Source: Shigella phage vB_SdyM_006. Taken from it: a DNA stretch of 64,000 nt. Location of the stretch: the sequence record MK295204, one strand, 5' to 3'. The position numbers and the translations under genes were made by a program. The notes beneath the pieces were generated by a model. The model was not told the DNA's origin. It saw only the letters and a list, made by a program, of their open reading frames with translations, and ran no database searches. Positions within the stretch are counted from its first letter, which is position 1; each line of letters opens with the position of its first letter. Below are positions 2,762-32,986 of the stretch, one piece after another.

Positions 2762-3810
2762 TATGAGTTAACCGATTCAACATGTAGGCTTAAGGCATAT
2801 TTAAATAATATTTCTTTTTCGTCTTCAGACAAGCCTTCTAATGCATTGATATATTCTCGAATGATAGTTTCTAAACTTTCAACAACAATATCATCAGAGT
2901 CATCAACTTCAGGTCCATCTGTAGCTACTTTAGAAACAACCTTTAATGAATGGACTACGGATTCTAATTTAGATTCAAATTCTGTAAATTTATCATCCAT
3001 TTTATTAACAATAACACGAACAGCGATATCTTTATAATCTTCAGGGTTAATATCTGAAGGATATTGAACACGTTGGTGCCACATTGTTTTATTTTGAACA
3101 AACTCTACACTAGAATCTTTAGGGTTAAATATCCATACACCTCTAGGGTCATCCTCATCGCCAGCAGTAATTGAATATGGAGTTCCAATATATAATACAT
3201 TACCAGCTTCAGAAATCGTATGGAAGTGGCCTGAATAGACTTTATCATATTTTTTAAGAAAGTCTGGTTCTAGTCCATGGGATTTCATTCCTTTATAAAA
3301 ATAAAATCCGTTTAATTCCCAATGTCCAATACATATTTTAGCATTAGACTTTTTAATATGGTCTAAAATCTCTTTAGTGTTTTCATCGCACATCCAAGGA
3401 ATTAAATCAATTAATGTTCCTTCTATTTCGACTGTTGTTGGTTTATCATAAATTGTTATATTATCATGTTTTGATAATAATTCCGAAACCGAGTTAGGAT
3501 GGATTTTATTTTTGAAATGTAAATCATGATTACCAATAATAACATGCAAGTTAATACCAGCTTCTTTAAGTAAATCCACATTTTCTCTACTAAATTCCAT
3601 TGTGACATGTGTAATGGCTTTACGTACATCGAACCAATCACCAAATTGAATAACTTCTGTGATTTTGTTTTGTTTACAAATTTCGATAATTTGTTTTATT
3701 GAATCTCTTTGGATATTTTGAATCCAAGGGTCGTCTTTAGCGACCCCATAATGTAAATCACCTACAAATAAAATCATCATAATATCCTTGTCAATTAAAA
3801 TTGATACCAC
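2761..3810 (-). CDS. 47: Recombination endonuclease subunit gp47 (SbcD/Mre11-like phosphoesterase)
   Basis: Calcineurin-like phosphoesterase motifs (GDLHYG, GDWFD, GNHD); true start probably internal Met (MILFVGDLHYG, near 3777). Confidence 0.9.
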   Translation of the reverse strand: MVSILIDKDIMMILFVGDLHYGVAKDDPWIQNIQRDSIKQIIEICKQNKITEVIQFGDWFDVRKAITHVTMEFSRENVDLLKEAGINLHVIIGNHDLHFKNKIHPNSVSELLSKHDNITIYDKPTTVEIEGTLIDLIPWMCDENTKEILDHIKKSNAKICIGHWELNGFYFYKGMKSHGLEPDFLKKYDKVYSGHFHTISEAGNVLYIGTPYSITAGDEDDPRGVWIFNPKDSSVEFVQNKTMWHQRVQYPSDINPEDYKDIAVRVIVNKMDDKFTEFESKLESVVHSLKVVSKVATDGPEVDDSDDIVVESLETIIREYINALEGLSEDEKEILFKYALSLHVESVNS

Positions 3811-16228: not shown

Positions 16229-16446
16229 TATATTTCCTTAAAAGAGTTTAGTAAAGCTTTAAATCTACGAAGTTCATCAATATCTGCACCAGAAGTTATA
16301 ACACCACTAAATTCAAAAGCATAGTCAAATTCGTCTTTATATTTGTGTTGAATTAAAACTGTTTGACGACGATTTAACGGTCCATAATTAATAATGCGTT
16401 TTGTTCTAACAGGAACACCTTCGGTAATTTCAGTTTTTATTTCCAT
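16228..16446 (-). CDS. Hypothetical protein
   Basis: 72-aa ORF. Confidence 0.4.
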   Translation of the reverse strand: MEIKTEITEGVPVRTKRIINYGPLNRRQTVLIQHKYKDEFDYAFEFSGVITSGADIDELRRFKALLNSFKEI

Positions 16447-16708
16447 CTCGGTTCTCTAGCTCTGTCTCTGGTAAACAAGAAATGCCAGAAGAAGCGTTTT
16501 GATATGAGGCCATGACCCAACATGTCACTTTATACTCAGAATCTTTAATTTTAAAAATAGTTGGCTCATACTCAAACTTGTACCAGCCGGATTTAGATTT
16601 AAGGCTGATTGATGTTGTCTTTACATCTAAGACATCTAATGTTTTTTGTTTATCTTCGGCATAAGCACTAACAGATAAAGCAACTAACAAAGCAATTAAG
16701 TACTTCAT
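16430..16708 (-). CDS. Secreted/periplasmic small protein
   Basis: 92 aa with N-terminal signal peptide MKYLIALLVALSVSAYA. Confidence 0.5.
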   Translation of the reverse strand: MKYLIALLVALSVSAYAEDKQKTLDVLDVKTTSISLKSKSGWYKFEYEPTIFKIKDSEYKVTCWVMASYQNASSGISCLPETELENRDGNKN

Positions 16709-19940: not shown

Positions 19941-20314
19941 TATGATAACGATAACAAATACTTAGTCTTTTTACAAAGTGTCATAATTTCATCTAATGCA
20001 GATTGTCCTGCACTACAAGTCGAGTCGTAGATTTCTTCTCCTAAAGAAATTATTTTATCTAATATTTCTGTAGATGATTCTATTTTTGTTGGGAAATTTC
20101 TAGTGTAAGCACCACCACTCCCTAGATATATCTCAACAAATGTGTCTATTAATTCTGGCATATCTTCATAGAAATCTTCATATACTTTATGATGCGCATA
20201 GCTTTTTGTTTCGAAGTGATATGAGTGCATGTAAGAAGAACTTATTAAACATAATCCAATAAATTCACTATGCCTTGTAGACTTGGGTTTTACAAACGTA
20301 GAAAAATCATTCAT
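19940..20314 (-). CDS. Hypothetical protein
   Basis: 124-aa ORF. Confidence 0.5.
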   Translation of the reverse strand: MNDFSTFVKPKSTRHSEFIGLCLISSSYMHSYHFETKSYAHHKVYEDFYEDMPELIDTFVEIYLGSGGAYTRNFPTKIESSTEILDKIISLGEEIYDSTCSAGQSALDEIMTLCKKTKYLLSLS

Positions 20315-20609
20315 CGTGTACTAATTCCTTTTTAAGATTGTATACGTATTCTTGTGCTGCTGTTTTGCCATCTTCACTACATTTGTTATTTTGACAGTTT
20401 GTTTCTTCCCATTTGGTTCTAATGAAAGCATAAAACTGCTCAGATTCTTCTTTAGAAGGTTCTTTCAATTTACTGTACACAGACATGGCACCTTCAGCGT
20501 ATACATTAAAATATTTATCGTCTGATGCATACGCGCTAGAAAACCCAATGCATAGTGTTAAAACACATGCAATTATGCCAGGTGAAAAGTAATTTTTGAA
20601 CTCGGCCAT
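20307..20609 (-). CDS. Secreted/periplasmic small protein
   Basis: 100 aa; hydrophobic N-terminal segment ending AYASD (signal-peptide-like). Confidence 0.45.
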   Translation of the reverse strand: MAEFKNYFSPGIIACVLTLCIGFSSAYASDDKYFNVYAEGAMSVYSKLKEPSKEESEQFYAFIRTKWEETNCQNNKCSEDGKTAAQEYVYNLKKELVHDE

Positions 20610-20870: not shown

Positions 20871-21437
20871 TTATTTATTAAATTCAAAATAATGCTTACG
20901 ACAAAATGATTTGTACTTATCATCACCTCCTATTTCAATTGTGTCTCCTTCTTTAACTGCTTTTCCTGAAGGGCTACACTTTGCTGTATGGGTTGCTTTT
21001 CTTCCACACCAACAAACTGCTTTTAGTTCTTCTAATTTATCAGCCCAGGCTAATAAAGCAGCTGAGCCTTCAAACAATTCACCTTTAAAATCAGTTTTTA
21101 ACCCAAAGCACATAACTGGGATCTGATGATTGTCGACAATTTTTGTCAATTGAAGAACCTGAGCCTTTGTTAAAAATTGACATTCATCAATAAGAATAGC
21201 TGCATTGTTTGTACCAATACTTAAATAAAGATTATACAAATCAGTTTCTTTAGAAAATAAAATACACTGTTCTTTTATCCCAACCCTACTAGAAATAACA
21301 CCTTTATCACGAGTATCAATATCGGGTTTAAGAAGTAAACAACTCATTTTTTGCTCTTTATAATTATTATTAACGGATAACAATTTTAAAGATTTACCAG
21401 CTGCCATAGAACCATATACAAAATACAATTGAGCCAT
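20871..21437 (-). CDS. tk: Thymidine kinase
   Basis: P-loop YGSMAAGKS and C-terminal Zn cluster CWCGRKA...CRKH; start trimmed to MAQLYFVYGSM by alignment to the T4 Tk N-terminus. Confidence 0.9.
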   Translation of the reverse strand: MAQLYFVYGSMAAGKSLKLLSVNNNYKEQKMSCLLLKPDIDTRDKGVISSRVGIKEQCILFSKETDLYNLYLSIGTNNAAILIDECQFLTKAQVLQLTKIVDNHQIPVMCFGLKTDFKGELFEGSAALLAWADKLEELKAVCWCGRKATHTAKCSPSGKAVKEGDTIEIGGDDKYKSFCRKHYFEFNK

Positions 21438-21438
21438 A

Positions 21439-21651
21439 TTATTCCTTAATCCATTTAACCCAAAGAACACATTCTGCTTCTTTAGGTTTACCTGTTTTTG
21501 TTTTATAAGTATATACTACTTTGTGTTCTAAAAATTTAATAGGGTCTGTTAAGCCTACCCATGTCTTAGTTTCTCTAATAGATTCATGATGACTCAGAGA
21601 AATAAGGCGTCCTTCTTTTTCCATTTTAAATGGATGCGGTAAATGTGTCAT
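21439..21651 (-). CDS. Hypothetical protein
   Basis: 70-aa ORF immediately upstream of tk. Confidence 0.45.
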   Translation of the reverse strand: MTHLPHPFKMEKEGRLISLSHHESIRETKTWVGLTDPIKFLEHKVVYTYKTKTGKPKEAECVLWVKWIKE

Positions 21652-21767
21652 TCAAATGTACCTCTAAAAGCAAAAAATATACAAATAGCCAAAACTGGAA
21701 AAAGAATAACAGAAACTAAGGTATTAATAAACAATTCGCTAAGTAAAAATTCCATATTTGTTCCAAA

Positions 21768-22208
21768 TTATTTTAATTCTTTAAATCTCATTTTATCATG
21801 ACCATCTATTCGATAAGTCCCGTATTGTCCAACATTATCCACTATATTAACAACAATTTCACCATTGCAAACTCTAAATAGTCTAGCAAGTTTAGTCACT
21901 TCATACTTATTGATAATAAACTGGGGACCAAGAATGTCCCCATGAACTGCTCGATTACACCCAGAAACAAAAAATTTACCATTAGGAATAGATATAGAAT
22001 CAGAATGGTCAATTAAAGAATAAAATGTTGCTCCAAAGACACGTTTTTTAGGTTGCCAAACAATTTCTATATTTGACTTTTTGAGACCTGCATTTTCTAT
22101 CAAAGACCCAGATATTCCGTATAATTTAGGATTTACATATCCTGGGACTTCATACCATGAGAAAGTGCAAGAACTAAAAAATATAAGACATGCTAATAAG
22201 TATTTCAT
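21768..22208 (-). CDS. Secreted protein/lipoprotein of unknown function
   Basis: 146 aa; signal peptide MKYLLACLIFFSSC. Confidence 0.5.
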   Translation of the reverse strand: MKYLLACLIFFSSCTFSWYEVPGYVNPKLYGISGSLIENAGLKKSNIEIVWQPKKRVFGATFYSLIDHSDSISIPNGKFFVSGCNRAVHGDILGPQFIINKYEVTKLARLFRVCNGEIVVNIVDNVGQYGTYRIDGHDKMRFKELK

Positions 22209-22519
22209 TGATTTATCCCTGCAATGTATTTGTCCATTAATGCTCCTCTATATGTTTCACATATTTCGCTATTAGGCGCCTTTTCGCATAAAGAAGATAG
22301 TGAATTTGCTTTATTTTTTAAAGCAGATATTTTGTACTCCGCATCTTTTTTTGATTGTAAAAATCCTTCATGAAAAGAAGTGCTCAATTCAACAGATAAA
22401 ATATTGATACATTCTATATCATCACCACAAAAGTATTTTGCTACATCTATAGATTCTGACATATTATTAGATGCAATCACCGGAAATGTTACTAAAAATA
22501 ACAATAAAAGTTTTTTCAT
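22205..22519 (-). CDS. Secreted cysteine-containing small protein
   Basis: 104 aa; signal peptide MKKLLLLFLVTFPVIAS. Confidence 0.5.
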   Translation of the reverse strand: MKKLLLLFLVTFPVIASNNMSESIDVAKYFCGDDIECINILSVELSTSFHEGFLQSKKDAEYKISALKNKANSLSSLCEKAPNSEICETYRGALMDKYIAGINQ

Positions 22520-22522
22520 AAC

Positions 22523-23083
22523 TTACTCCATTGTGTTTCCTACAATAGAATTAGATTTAAGATATTCTGCAATTGTTCGAACTTCATAAGAATATGTTTG
22601 TCCAGGTTTATATTTCCAATTATAGCCGGCATTGTAGCTTGCCAAAGCTTTATTGATATCTCCTTTATGGACTTTTAACCAACTTTTAAGTTCTACATGG
22701 CTCCAATATGCAGAATTTCCTCTATCTAATAGTTCTTTAATTATATCAGAATCTGGCTTAGGAGTTCCGGCTAATTTAAGACGGTTCCTAACAGTTTTAA
22801 TATAATTTTGGAACATACCATAAGCATGGTGGTTTTTCCGGTAAACTACCAAATTTGGGTTCTCGTACCCAGAACTTTCTTTAAATGCTATAGCAGCAAA
22901 TATATACCCAAGATGCTCTTCATCTTTTTCAAAGTCTCTTGGTTCTCCGTTTTTGTTAAATTGTTGTCCAAAATGGTATGCATAATTTAGATTATCATAT
23001 TGTTCGTATGATAAATTATTAGGCAAATAAACTGCACTACAAGAAACCGAGACAAATAATAAAGCGATTAATAAATATTTCAA
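22523..23083 (-). CDS. Secreted lytic transglycosylase-like protein (SLT domain)
   Basis: 186 aa; signal peptide, then E-S ... GMFQ ... SYNAG motifs resembling the SLT catalytic signature. Confidence 0.6.
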   Translation of the reverse strand: MKYLLIALLFVSVSCSAVYLPNNLSYEQYDNLNYAYHFGQQFNKNGEPRDFEKDEEHLGYIFAAIAFKESSGYENPNLVVYRKNHHAYGMFQNYIKTVRNRLKLAGTPKPDSDIIKELLDRGNSAYWSHVELKSWLKVHKGDINKALASYNAGYNWKYKPGQTYSYEVRTIAEYLKSNSIVGNTME

Positions 23084-23499
23084 AATTTAATTACCTTTGT
23101 TGAAATTTTAGATGATAAACGTGTTGGATTAACTATAGCCATACGACATGTTAATCCATATGTTCCCTGTGTTCCTTCAGATGAAGTGAATCCAATCCAT
23201 AGTTTCCCATCTGTAATTTCTAACCTAGTAGGTCTATATTCGATATTAGGGTCTGGATTTTCTATAGGCATATCAGGCAATTTACAGTAGTCTAAAATAG
23301 ATTCCTTTGCCTGATATAATTTATTTAATAGACTAAAAATATCACTTAACGGAATTCCACGTTCTAAAGTCCTGTCAATAATATGACTTTGGAATTTAAT
23401 ATGGAACCCAGCGTTTTCTTGATTTAATTTTGAGTTAATTTCTGAGAAAGCATCAGCGAACTTCCTACGTGCTTTGGCTCGTTCTACATGAATGTTCAT
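23080..23499 (-). CDS. regB: Endoribonuclease RegB
   Basis: 139 aa; YRPTRLEITDGKLWIGFT ... CRMAIVNPTRL matches T4 RegB. Confidence 0.85.
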   Translation of the reverse strand: MNIHVERAKARRKFADAFSEINSKLNQENAGFHIKFQSHIIDRTLERGIPLSDIFSLLNKLYQAKESILDYCKLPDMPIENPDPNIEYRPTRLEITDGKLWIGFTSSEGTQGTYGLTCRMAIVNPTRLSSKISTKVIKF

Positions 23500-23897
23500 T
23501 AAATAGTCTCCAATTTTTTACCATAAAACTTATACCAATCAGGTTTTTGAGCGATTTTTTCATCTAATCTTGATTTAGATAAAGATATATCGTCTTCAGA
23601 CGGTGTATAATCATTATACCATTCTTTAGGAAAAATGAAATCAATTTTTTCAAAAGAAATGTTAAAGCCACGTTTTTTACATTCTTGGACTATCTGTTGT
23701 TGGCGAATTTCTAAAAATTTGAGTTTGTTATAAAAGAATTTGACATGACCTGTACCAAGGACGTAGTTGGCAGGAATTTTGACTGGTTTACCAAAAGCTT
23801 TTAAAGCCAAAGTAAACACACGTGGAAGTTCGCGATATTCAGCGATGAGATGTTGATCGGTAAGAAGTGCTGGGTCTAAAAGATTAATACGTGTCAT
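23499..23897 (-). CDS. denV: Endonuclease V (pyrimidine-dimer DNA glycosylase) DenV
   Basis: 132 aa; MTRINL..DQHL.AEYRELPRVF ... RLDEKIAQ.P.WYK.YGK near-colinear with T4 endo V. Confidence 0.9.
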   Translation of the reverse strand: MTRINLLDPALLTDQHLIAEYRELPRVFTLALKAFGKPVKIPANYVLGTGHVKFFYNKLKFLEIRQQQIVQECKKRGFNISFEKIDFIFPKEWYNDYTPSEDDISLSKSRLDEKIAQKPDWYKFYGKKLETI

Positions 23898-25348: not shown

Positions 25349-25720
25349 TTATCTCTTTAATTGGAAATGAGGACCATCTTTAAATGTTTTCCAATCACCA
25401 CCCCATTCTATAGCAATACCAAGTTCATTTGCTGCTTGTTTCATTGCTTTGGCAACGAGTTCAAATTTAGACCAATCTTGCCATGGGATAGCTTTATTAA
25501 CTAATGGTCCTAAGTCTACGGCTTCACCTGTCAAATGATAAGAATTCATAGTTTTAGAAACGCCTTTTCGGACATTTTCTTTTTGCTGTTCTACCGAACG
25601 TAGGCCTTCAATAACCATAAAATCTATCTCGGTTATTTGAATTGCTCGCTCTACAACTTTAACAAGCTCAGGTTTAACGCCTTTTAATCTATCTTTTGAT
25701 CTTTGTGATAATACGTACAT
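25349..25720 (-). CDS. M15-family L-alanyl-D-glutamate peptidase (T5-type endolysin)
   Basis: 123 aa; VKPEL.KV..RA...DF.V.EG.R ... SxHLTGEAVD ... WGGDW ... DGPHFQL aligns with the T5 endolysin / M15 zinc-peptidase signature. Confidence 0.75.
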   Translation of the reverse strand: MYVLSQRSKDRLKGVKPELVKVVERAIQITEIDFMVIEGLRSVEQQKENVRKGVSKTMNSYHLTGEAVDLGPLVNKAIPWQDWSKFELVAKAMKQAANELGIAIEWGGDWKTFKDGPHFQLKR

Positions 25721-29177: not shown

Positions 29178-29774
29178 TTATTTGTTAAAAGTATCAACAT
29201 ATAATTCGAGTTCAGACATATTAACCGAAACATTAGAGCTTTCTGTAAATGTGTCAACTTCTGTAATAATAGTATCAACATCTACTAATACATGGTCTGT
29301 AGAAGCCATTACATCTTCAGGTAATTTGATACCTAATGCATCAGTTTCTTTGTTCAATTTAATAACTTCTAAATTAGCTTTAATTTCTTCTAATTTATCA
29401 GCAAGTTCAACAACTTTTTCTGCGATCGTAATAATAGATTTTTTACGATTTTCAACTTCGGTTTCTAAAGCTTCACCCAATTTTTTATATTGCAAAGCAG
29501 CGATAAAATATGCTTTTGGCACGGCTTGTTCTTTGCTTTTTAAGAGACGAATATGGTCTTCTTTTAGTTTACTGTTTTTAAAGTGGTCTTGAGCCTTGGC
29601 TTTTAAGTGCTCAATGCTTTGAGTTGCAGTAATTTCAGCATGACGTAAACTGTCAATTTTATTGATGATTAACGTCGCAGCTTGGGTATAACGTTCTTCA
29701 GCAGATAAATTGCTTTTGAAGAAAGAAGTTAATTTAGTAGATACGAAGTTTTTAGCAGTTTTTAATAAGCTCAT
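29178..29774 (-). CDS. Coiled-coil protein
   Basis: 198 aa, heptad-rich helical N-terminal two-thirds and acidic C-terminus; the plus-strand 29119-29592 ORF is its low-complexity antisense. Confidence 0.5.
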   Translation of the reverse strand: MSLLKTAKNFVSTKLTSFFKSNLSAEERYTQAATLIINKIDSLRHAEITATQSIEHLKAKAQDHFKNSKLKEDHIRLLKSKEQAVPKAYFIAALQYKKLGEALETEVENRKKSIITIAEKVVELADKLEEIKANLEVIKLNKETDALGIKLPEDVMASTDHVLVDVDTIITEVDTFTESSNVSVNMSELELYVDTFNK

Positions 29775-30025
29775 TTTATTTCCTTACATGTATTAGTTTC
29801 AAAATCAACAATAATATTTTTACGTTCAATGCCAAGATTAATTAATTTAGAAATACATTGACCTTGGATTTTTTGGTCTTCTAAACCTTTAGAAACACTT
29901 TTAGATAATGCACTCCATGAAAAACAAATAACTATTAAAATAACACATCCAATTAAATATTTCATGATATACTCCATTTGTTTTGATGTGTCTATAGTAT
30001 TATAGATTTTTTGTGTTGTAAACAT
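29771..30025 (-). CDS. Small secreted protein
   Basis: 84 aa; internal Met followed by signal-peptide-like MKYLIGCVILIVICFSWSALS. Confidence 0.4.
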   Translation of the reverse strand: MFTTQKIYNTIDTSKQMEYIMKYLIGCVILIVICFSWSALSKSVSKGLEDQKIQGQCISKLINLGIERKNIIVDFETNTCKEIK

Positions 30026-32593: not shown

Positions 32594-32986
32594 TTACCAA
32601 GAATAAGCAAAACCTGCACCAAGAGTAGAATTAGATTTGTTATCAAATGCACCAGACATTTTTAATGTTACATTTGTGTTTTCTGGATGAGCACCAAAAG
32701 CGACAGCTACAGCTGAACCAGATTTATAACCACCAACACCTAAGCCTAAAGAAATGGTTTTAGAAAAATCTAATGGAACATTATTCATAGCAGAAGCAGA
32801 AGCAAATCCAGCTTTTACTTGGTCCATTTTTCCGTCAACATCTTTAATATATCTATTCCAGGATTCATTTACAGTTCCTTCGTGAAAAGTATGATTAAGA
32901 TTTGGACTAATCCAATTATTATCTGATGCAATTGAACCAGAACTCAAAACTAATAATGAAGCCATAAAAATAAATTTTAAATTCAT
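32594..32986 (-). CDS. Small outer-membrane protein with YadA-like (trimeric autotransporter) C-terminal anchor
   Basis: 130 aa; signal peptide MNLKFIFMASLLVLSSGSIA, then GLGVGGYKSGSAVAVAFG ... NVTLKMSGAF ... GAGFAYSW ending in a C-terminal aromatic, resembling the YadA anchor beta-strand pattern. Confidence 0.55.
   Translation of the reverse strand: MNLKFIFMASLLVLSSGSIASDNNWISPNLNHTFHEGTVNESWNRYIKDVDGKMDQVKAGFASASAMNNVPLDFSKTISLGLGVGGYKSGSAVAVAFGAHPENTNVTLKMSGAFDNKSNSTLGAGFAYSW

Follow-up and report, generated by a model that had tools for sequence, protein, structure and literature searches.

In bacteriophage T4, gene vs.1 lies directly after regB and is followed by vs, and both genes give an early RNA and a middle protein, the two proteins having been detected by mass spectrometry (PMC9697503 supplement). 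The similarity of vs.1 to SLT-family proteins was reported by Nolan et al. in 2006 and traced to an earlier T4 genome analysis (PMC1524935), and the transglycosylase identity of vs.1 is thus published knowledge and not new. Here we describe the corresponding locus at positions 21768-23083 of a 64,000-nucleotide stretch of Shigella phage vB_SdyM_006 (MK295204; the whole stretch is referred to as the window), where three consecutive open reading frames (ORFs) on the minus strand encode products with predicted signal peptides. The block combines T4 vs.1 and vs orthologues with one lineage-restricted, uncharacterised gene, ORF1, an arrangement that is ordinary for such phages. Proteus phage phiP4-3 (Bragavirus, Straboviridae) matches positions 21600-23600 with 100% identity, other T4-like phages of Proteus with about 87%, and the trio corresponds to the annotated coding sequences gp240 (vs.1), gp239 (vs) and gp238 (ORF1) of RefSeq NC_055737. 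We consider it reasonably probable that the block is the regB-vs.1-vs cluster with an extra gene, a pre-replicative unit with three Sec-exported, envelope-remodelling products in which Vs belongs to the Vs.1 pathway. Its features are:

22523-23083, minus strand: vs.1 orthologue, 186 aa, TTG start; predicted exported SLT-family lytic transglycosylase
23033-23083, minus strand: predicted signal peptide of Vs.1, aa 1-17, MKYLLIALLFVSVSCSA↓VY (rule-based scan; arrow, cleavage)
22616-22918, minus strand: SLT domain of Vs.1, aa 56-156, the stretch matched by Pfam PF01464
22877-22879, minus strand: Glu69 codon of vs.1, GAA; predicted catalytic glutamate of the E-S motif (KESSG)
22205-22519, minus strand: vs orthologue, 104 aa; predicted exported four-helix protein, labelled 'valyl tRNA synthetase modifier'
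22472-22519, minus strand: predicted signal peptide of Vs, aa 1-16, MKKLLLLFLVTFPVIA↓SN (rule-based scan)
21768-22208, minus strand: ORF1 (phrog_4957), 146 aa; predicted exported beta-sandwich protein
22158-22208, minus strand: predicted signal peptide of ORF1, aa 1-17, MKYLLACLIFFSSCTFS↓WY (rule-based scan)

T4 Vs.1 and its phiP4-3 counterpart have the SLT motifs, a signal peptide and their place after regB in common. They differ in that the phiP4-3 gene begins with a TTG that is merged with the stop codon of regB, and in that the phiP4-3 signal peptide holds a cysteine within a loose, non-conserved lipobox-like string. T4 Vs is a member of the same family as the protein described here, with four cysteines, a signal peptide and a place directly after vs.1, but the two are 25% identical and differ in charge, the mature T4 protein being basic (computed pI 8.9) and that of phiP4-3 acidic (pI 4.8), and binding to valyl-tRNA synthetase (ValRS) has been described for T4 only. 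A secreted phage enzyme of comparable design is the kayvirus Tgl, which combines transglycosylase motifs with a signal peptide, is secreted by the host, has an early-type promoter, lies outside the holin-endolysin pair and is proposed to aid the endolysin (PMC7150955). Tgl differs in its Gram-positive host and in having been tested experimentally, whereas Vs.1 is known from sequence. We know of no sequence relationship between the two proteins.

EtgA, of the type III secretion system of enteropathogenic Escherichia coli, has a similar size (189 aa in the 8urn chain, which is an EscI-EtgA fusion), and its E-S and Y-N-A-G regions are aligned with those of Vs.1. EtgA has a Sec signal and is stimulated by its small partner EscI, which would parallel Vs. 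However, the similarity to EtgA is marginal and confined to sequence, and Vs.1 is a phage early gene product with regB, denV, tk and rI as neighbours and no secretion apparatus nearby, so it does not have the setting of a specialised secretion-machine lytic transglycosylase of the EtgA/IpgF/IagB type. A further point of comparison is T4 Spackle (gp61.3), listed as a periplasmic T4 protein, as is predicted for Vs and ORF1; Spackle is a small, helical, early protein with a signal peptide that acts on a peptidoglycan-cleaving enzyme.

Signal peptides and SLT motifs of the block

Signal peptides were called by a rule-based scan for n-h-c architecture with small residues at positions -3 and -1, and the calls were checked against homologues and background ORFs. 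The N-termini of Vs.1, Vs and ORF1 all combine a basic n-region with a hydrophobic h-region that lacks charges and with a small-x-small site, cleavage being predicted at SCSA↓VY, VIA↓SN and TFS↓WY, respectively. The homologues passed the same scan in 10 of 10 cases for Vs.1, 32 of 32 for Vs and 13 of 16 for ORF1, the three ORF1 homologues that failed being N-terminally truncated gene calls. When the scan was extended to 70 IMG/VR loci with a Vs.1 relative, 51 of them T4-like, it was passed by 68 of 70 Vs.1, 51 of 51 Vs and 22 of 22 ORF1 proteins, against a background of 18 of 632 (2.8%) among the remaining ORFs of 100 aa or more on the coding strand of these loci. The Vs.1, Vs and ORF1 loci contain 31, 34 and 15 distinct signal sequences, respectively, and the architecture is kept throughout; such turnover of the signal sequence with a kept architecture is the pattern predicted by selection for export. 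Signal-peptide architecture is thus present in all three ORFs and in essentially all of their homologues, beyond chance, in agreement with a preliminary description of this DNA, which had noted three consecutive ORFs starting with signal peptides. That description did not include the orthology to T4 vs.1 and vs, the synteny with regB, the 2006 publication on SLT similarity or the cytoplasmic label of the middle ORF.

In T4, the Vs N-terminus reads MTKILVLCIGLISFSASASA↓D, and the predicted mature N-termini are DTSYTEIR... for Vs, cut after ASA, and SEHTFSNVQLDNMR for Vs.1. In the ORF1 homologues the site reads ..NA↓W or ..SA↓W, the Trp after it being invariant. For lipoproteins, we required a lipobox of the form [LVI][ASTVI][GAS]C that is conserved in orthologues. 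By this measure a lipoprotein reading of ORF1 and Vs.1 was rejected: their FSSC and VSC strings agree with no more than a loose PROSITE-like pattern, most orthologues lack the Cys (Cys14 in ORF1), and orthologues carry AXA↓W-type sites. A G-C lipobox (for example L-S-G-C) does replace the AXA site in 6 of the 32 Vs family members, which come from other genera. The invariant cysteines of Vs and ORF1 all fall in the mature parts.

Vs.1 is 45% identical to T4 Vs.1 over its full length, matches phrog_600 (E 9e-57) and scores 23.2 bits against the Pfam SLT profile (PF01464), whose gathering threshold is 21.3. The same profile is matched by 10 of 10 diverse Vs.1 homologues, with a best E of 7e-7. 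In an alignment spanning Straboviridae, Felixounavirus and Kuttervirus, E69-S70 is invariant, and G89-M-F-Q92, S149-Y-N-A-G153 and Y164 are invariant or nearly so. On these profile and motif grounds, Vs.1 is assigned to the SLT-family (family-1) lytic transglycosylases with a full motif set. The SLT-like motifs (ES, GMFQ, SYNAG) that the preliminary description had picked out in the largest ORF are therefore present and conserved across three phage groups, and the SLT profile search that it had proposed as a check supports its assignment. Direct sequence searches of the PDB with Vs.1, Vs and ORF1 returned nothing meaningful. When the Vs.1 family profile was used instead, EtgA (8urn) was the best match (E 2.6e-4) and the only solved relative found, Vs.1 Glu69 aligning with the glutamate of the EtgA AWNES motif. 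Relatives of Vs.1 were found by tblastn in 1948 phage records, and the literature that we searched contains no biochemical characterisation of T4 or phiP4-3 Vs.1.

Gene linkage, Vs and ORF1

The order regB>vs.1>vs is the same here as in T4, and it is extended to regB>vs.1>vs>ORF1 in Tegunavirus, Karamvirus, Gelderlandvirus and Jiaodavirus. In all 51 T4-like IMG/VR loci, vs lies downstream of vs.1 on the same strand, and in 43 of them the distance from the vs.1 stop to the vs start is between -3 and +4 nt; in the remaining 8 loci the two genes are 0.5-1.2 kb apart, as in phiKp_3, a Slopekvirus phage. In 22 loci ORF1 comes after vs, with a 4-nt overlap in 20. The gene after vs differs between genera while the vs.1-vs pair persists, and because the pair is kept together as its downstream neighbour varies, the pairing suggests a shared function.

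The Vs protein of phiP4-3 matches phrog_1256 (E 6e-29). A family profile built from this protein, T4 Vs and four further members retrieves 33 proteins of the family, each carrying the PF26829 tag. All four cysteines are shared with T4 Vs, and they are invariant in the 32-member alignment. The AF2 model (pLDDT 84) contains helices at residues 15-31, 35-55, 60-74 and 84-102, and structural searches with it found no solved structure that specifically resembles it. From this model, Vs would be a four-helix bundle stapled by the local disulfides C31-C37 and C78-C87. An HdeA-like reading of Vs was considered and set aside, since the Pfam match (E 0.057) is below threshold and occurs in 1 of 32 family members; we regard it as a chance match.

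ORF1 belongs to phrog_4957, a small, uncharacterised family of ~125-146-aa proteins that is represented in 232 phage records and in 21 clusters among 1.84 billion representative proteins. Two cysteines are present without exception in its alignment, and modelling suggests a beta-sandwich with one disulfide. One further match to the ORF1 profile is a metagenomic protein of 3291 aa with 29 repeated matches to profile positions 108-135; this may reflect a short motif shared by a repeat protein, or an artefact of low complexity. ORF1 is absent from T4, where the macrodomain gene tk.4 directly follows vs, and in Tegunavirus, Karamvirus, Gelderlandvirus and Jiaodavirus it lies between vs and tk.4. 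As a separate observation, Aeromonas phage 50AhydR13PP carries an unrelated 146-aa lipoprotein (MKKSIAAILALSIYGC...) between vs.1 and tk.4 (3065-3505 of the stretch examined), and no Vs gene was evident among the ORFs inspected by eye. The vs.1-tk.4 slot seems to collect exported proteins.

Readings of the block

The preliminary description placed export of these proteins in early infection. This timing cannot be read from the sequence of the window, where sigma-70 promoter matches are at background (29 found, 32.6 expected) and MotA-box-like sites are marginally enriched (28 found, 20.4 expected); it stands by way of the T4 orthologues, with their early RNA and middle protein. From 20 to 35 kb the coding strand has no copy of the late-promoter motif TATAAATA. 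Vs.1 also has its own signal peptide and the endolysin is encoded separately, so the locus is unlike a canonical holin-endolysin cassette. The annotated phiP4-3 endolysin is a 123-aa Peptidase_M15_4 protein (E 1e-14; ~25349-25720, minus strand) about 2.3 kb upstream, and not a T4 e-type muramidase.

Transposon data for T4 bear on the function of both genes. After competition in LB, the mutant counts were 26.6 for vs and 22.6 for vs.1, compared to 179 for regB, 290 for tk.4 and 652 for vs.3, and in M9 the log2 fold change was -2.19 for vs (adjusted p given as 0, a rounded value) and -0.87 for vs.1 (p 0.0055, adjusted 0.155) (HIDEN-SEQ preprint, 10.1101/2025.11.20.689424). Its authors single out vs as the most depleted T4 gene in M9, call its role unknown and favour a nutrient-related effect (10.1101/2025.11.20.689424). 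From the preprint tables, vs and vs.1 mutants are 7- to 30-fold rarer than mutants in the flanking non-essential genes, although the authors discuss only vs. Both genes thus matter for the fitness of T4, particularly in minimal medium.

In the mechanism that we favour, the block would be co-transcribed before replication, a timing known for the T4 orthologues and extended here to phiP4-3. Vs.1, Vs and ORF1 would be exported by Sec and cut by signal peptidase I at the predicted sites. In the periplasm, Vs.1 would cleave the bonds between N-acetylmuramic acid (MurNAc) and N-acetylglucosamine, generating 1,6-anhydroMurNAc ends and loosening or remodelling the sacculus independently of holin; it would thereby complement the M15 peptidase endolysin, as the secreted kayvirus Tgl may do beside LysK. 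Vs would act as a periplasmic partner or modulator in the Vs.1 pathway, rather than on the cytoplasmic ValRS, and ORF1 as an accessory periplasmic protein. Several points weigh against this proposal. Export of the block is predicted from the rule-based scan, the SLT assignment of Vs.1 comes from profile and motifs, and both a Vs-Vs.1 contact and the benefit of an early periplasmic transglycosylase are hypothetical. Vs.1 occurs without Vs in 19 IMG/VR contigs (~152-162 kb) resembling the Kuttervirus locus and in a Felixounavirus, which rules out Vs as an obligatory partner of Vs.1. The shared transposon defect could reflect polarity of vs.1 insertions on vs. Alleles of vs alter plating on valS(ts) hosts, which argues for an in vivo cytoplasmic effect. 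Furthermore, gene vs is credited with a cytoplasmic factor that binds ValRS (Müller & Marchin, as cited in PMC8076793).

Both RefSeq and PHROG label Vs as 'valyl tRNA synthetase modifier', a label that runs throughout a family with the hallmarks of export in every member examined and with a place just after an exported peptidoglycan-cleaving enzyme. The annotation of Vs conflicts with this exported architecture, although the altered plating of vs alleles on valS(ts) hosts favours a real in vivo link to ValRS. The literature that we searched makes no mention of where in the cell Vs is located. If the label is right, Vs would be the cytoplasmic tau factor that binds and modifies ValRS, its hydrophobic N-terminus would not serve export or only part of the protein would be exported, and only Vs.1 and ORF1 would be periplasmic. 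This reading, which we consider rather unlikely, agrees with the ValRS biochemistry cited in PMC8076793 and with the conditional need for T4 vs in minimal medium, which the preprint authors read as nutrient-related. Mature T4 Vs, computed at 11.0 kDa, is also close in size to tau, a factor of ~10 kDa. Yet the signal peptide is kept in 32 of 32 members and 51 of 51 loci despite sequence turnover, the lipobox of six members implies lipid anchoring outside the cytoplasm, and four invariant cysteines fit an oxidising compartment; 25% identity and a shift in pI from 8.9 to 4.8 would be odd for the ligand of a highly conserved enzyme. In addition, the original 1986 T4 record (X04567.1, 5399-5746) names vs only 'ORF 60.9' and vs.1 'ORF 61.4', so the ORF must have been linked to the genetic vs locus at a later date. 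Because of the universal signal peptide, the lipobox in some lineages, the invariant cysteines and the strong divergence, including in charge, we put forward tentatively that the Vs family consists of disulfide-bonded periplasmic proteins, lipid-anchored in some lineages, that work with Vs.1 on the envelope, the link to ValRS coming from another gene or from events after cell breakage. If this is true, the need for T4 vs in minimal medium would be an envelope phenotype and not a translation phenotype. A Vs protein acting in the periplasm would also mean that a fifty-year-old functional assignment needs revisiting, and it would open to direct test what T4-like phages use an early transglycosylase, independent of holin, for.

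Other roles for the exported proteins can be envisaged. Vs, ORF1 or both might be periplasmic inhibitors that hold Vs.1 until lysis, as Spackle does the gp5 lysozyme, and the strict adjacency of vs.1 and vs with overlapping or abutting codons, the predicted nature of Vs and ORF1 as small, disulfide-bonded periplasmic proteins and the shared phenotype of vs and vs.1 mutants would all suit such an arrangement. We nevertheless think it unlikely, since vs.1 mutants would then be expected to be neutral or to suppress a vs defect, yet vs.1 insertions are themselves depleted; Vs.1 is found alone in two other phage groups, and no known inhibitor of lysozymes or transglycosylases is among the structural matches listed for the Vs and ORF1 models. 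It is quite improbable that the block protects the envelope, by superinfection exclusion or resistance to lysis from without, instead of aiding lysis: T4 does produce further early proteins of the periplasm or membrane that serve such functions, Spackle is listed as periplasmic in the T4 tables of the preprint and the RI antiholin is encoded nearby (20307-20609), but an active transglycosylase weakens the wall, Spackle is not among the structural matches listed, and the T4 transposon defect was seen in ordinary single-phage competition. That the ORFs and their signal peptides are chance products of AT-rich DNA is already refuted for practical purposes; a GC content of ~31% favours N-termini rich in Leu, Ile, Phe and Lys, but the proteins belong to conserved families with strong profile scores, the rate of signal peptides is far above background and the T4 orthologues have been detected by mass spectrometry.

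Neighbouring genes and other predicted exported proteins

The block is tightly packed within its neighbourhood. Upstream, the regB stop and the vs.1 TTG start overlap as TTGA at 23080-23083, and regB (23080-23499) is preceded by denV (23499-23897). The gap between vs.1 and vs is 3 nt, and the vs stop overlaps the ORF1 ATG by 4 nt (ATGA). The Shine-Dalgarno sequence of vs, GGAG at 22526-22529 (minus strand), is made by the last vs.1 codons, ATG GAG TAA; GGAG is also the motif cut by RegB, the product of the gene just upstream. Downstream lie a DUF7202 gene, tk (20871-21470) and the RI antiholin gene (20307-20609). The window has a GC content of ~31%, and RNA genes and compositional anomalies were looked for and none found. 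One additional small ORF adjoins the block:

21648-21755, minus strand: 35-aa hydrophobic ORF, possible fourth envelope-directed product (phrog_30893, E 1.9e-19)

RefSeq NC_055737 leaves this ORF, which lies between gp237 and gp238, unannotated; it probably encodes a real small membrane protein.

Further secreted ORFs had been listed in the preliminary description at 16430-16708, 20307-20609 and 29771-30025. The first two pass our scan, the second being the RI antiholin; the third does not when read from its longest start. On the minus strand at 29771-30025, however, the N-terminus beginning at the internal Met21, MKYLIGCVILIVICFSWSA↓LS, looks signal-peptide-like by eye, and Met21 may be the true start. 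A 130-aa ORF at 32594-32986 (minus strand) also carries a signal peptide, MNLKFIFMASLLVLSSGSIA↓SD, and matches Pfam YadA_anchor (47.3 bits, threshold 22.7) as well as the C-termini of phage adhesin/tail PHROGs. Its product is probably an outer-membrane protein that looks like a miniature phage-encoded trimeric-autotransporter anchor.

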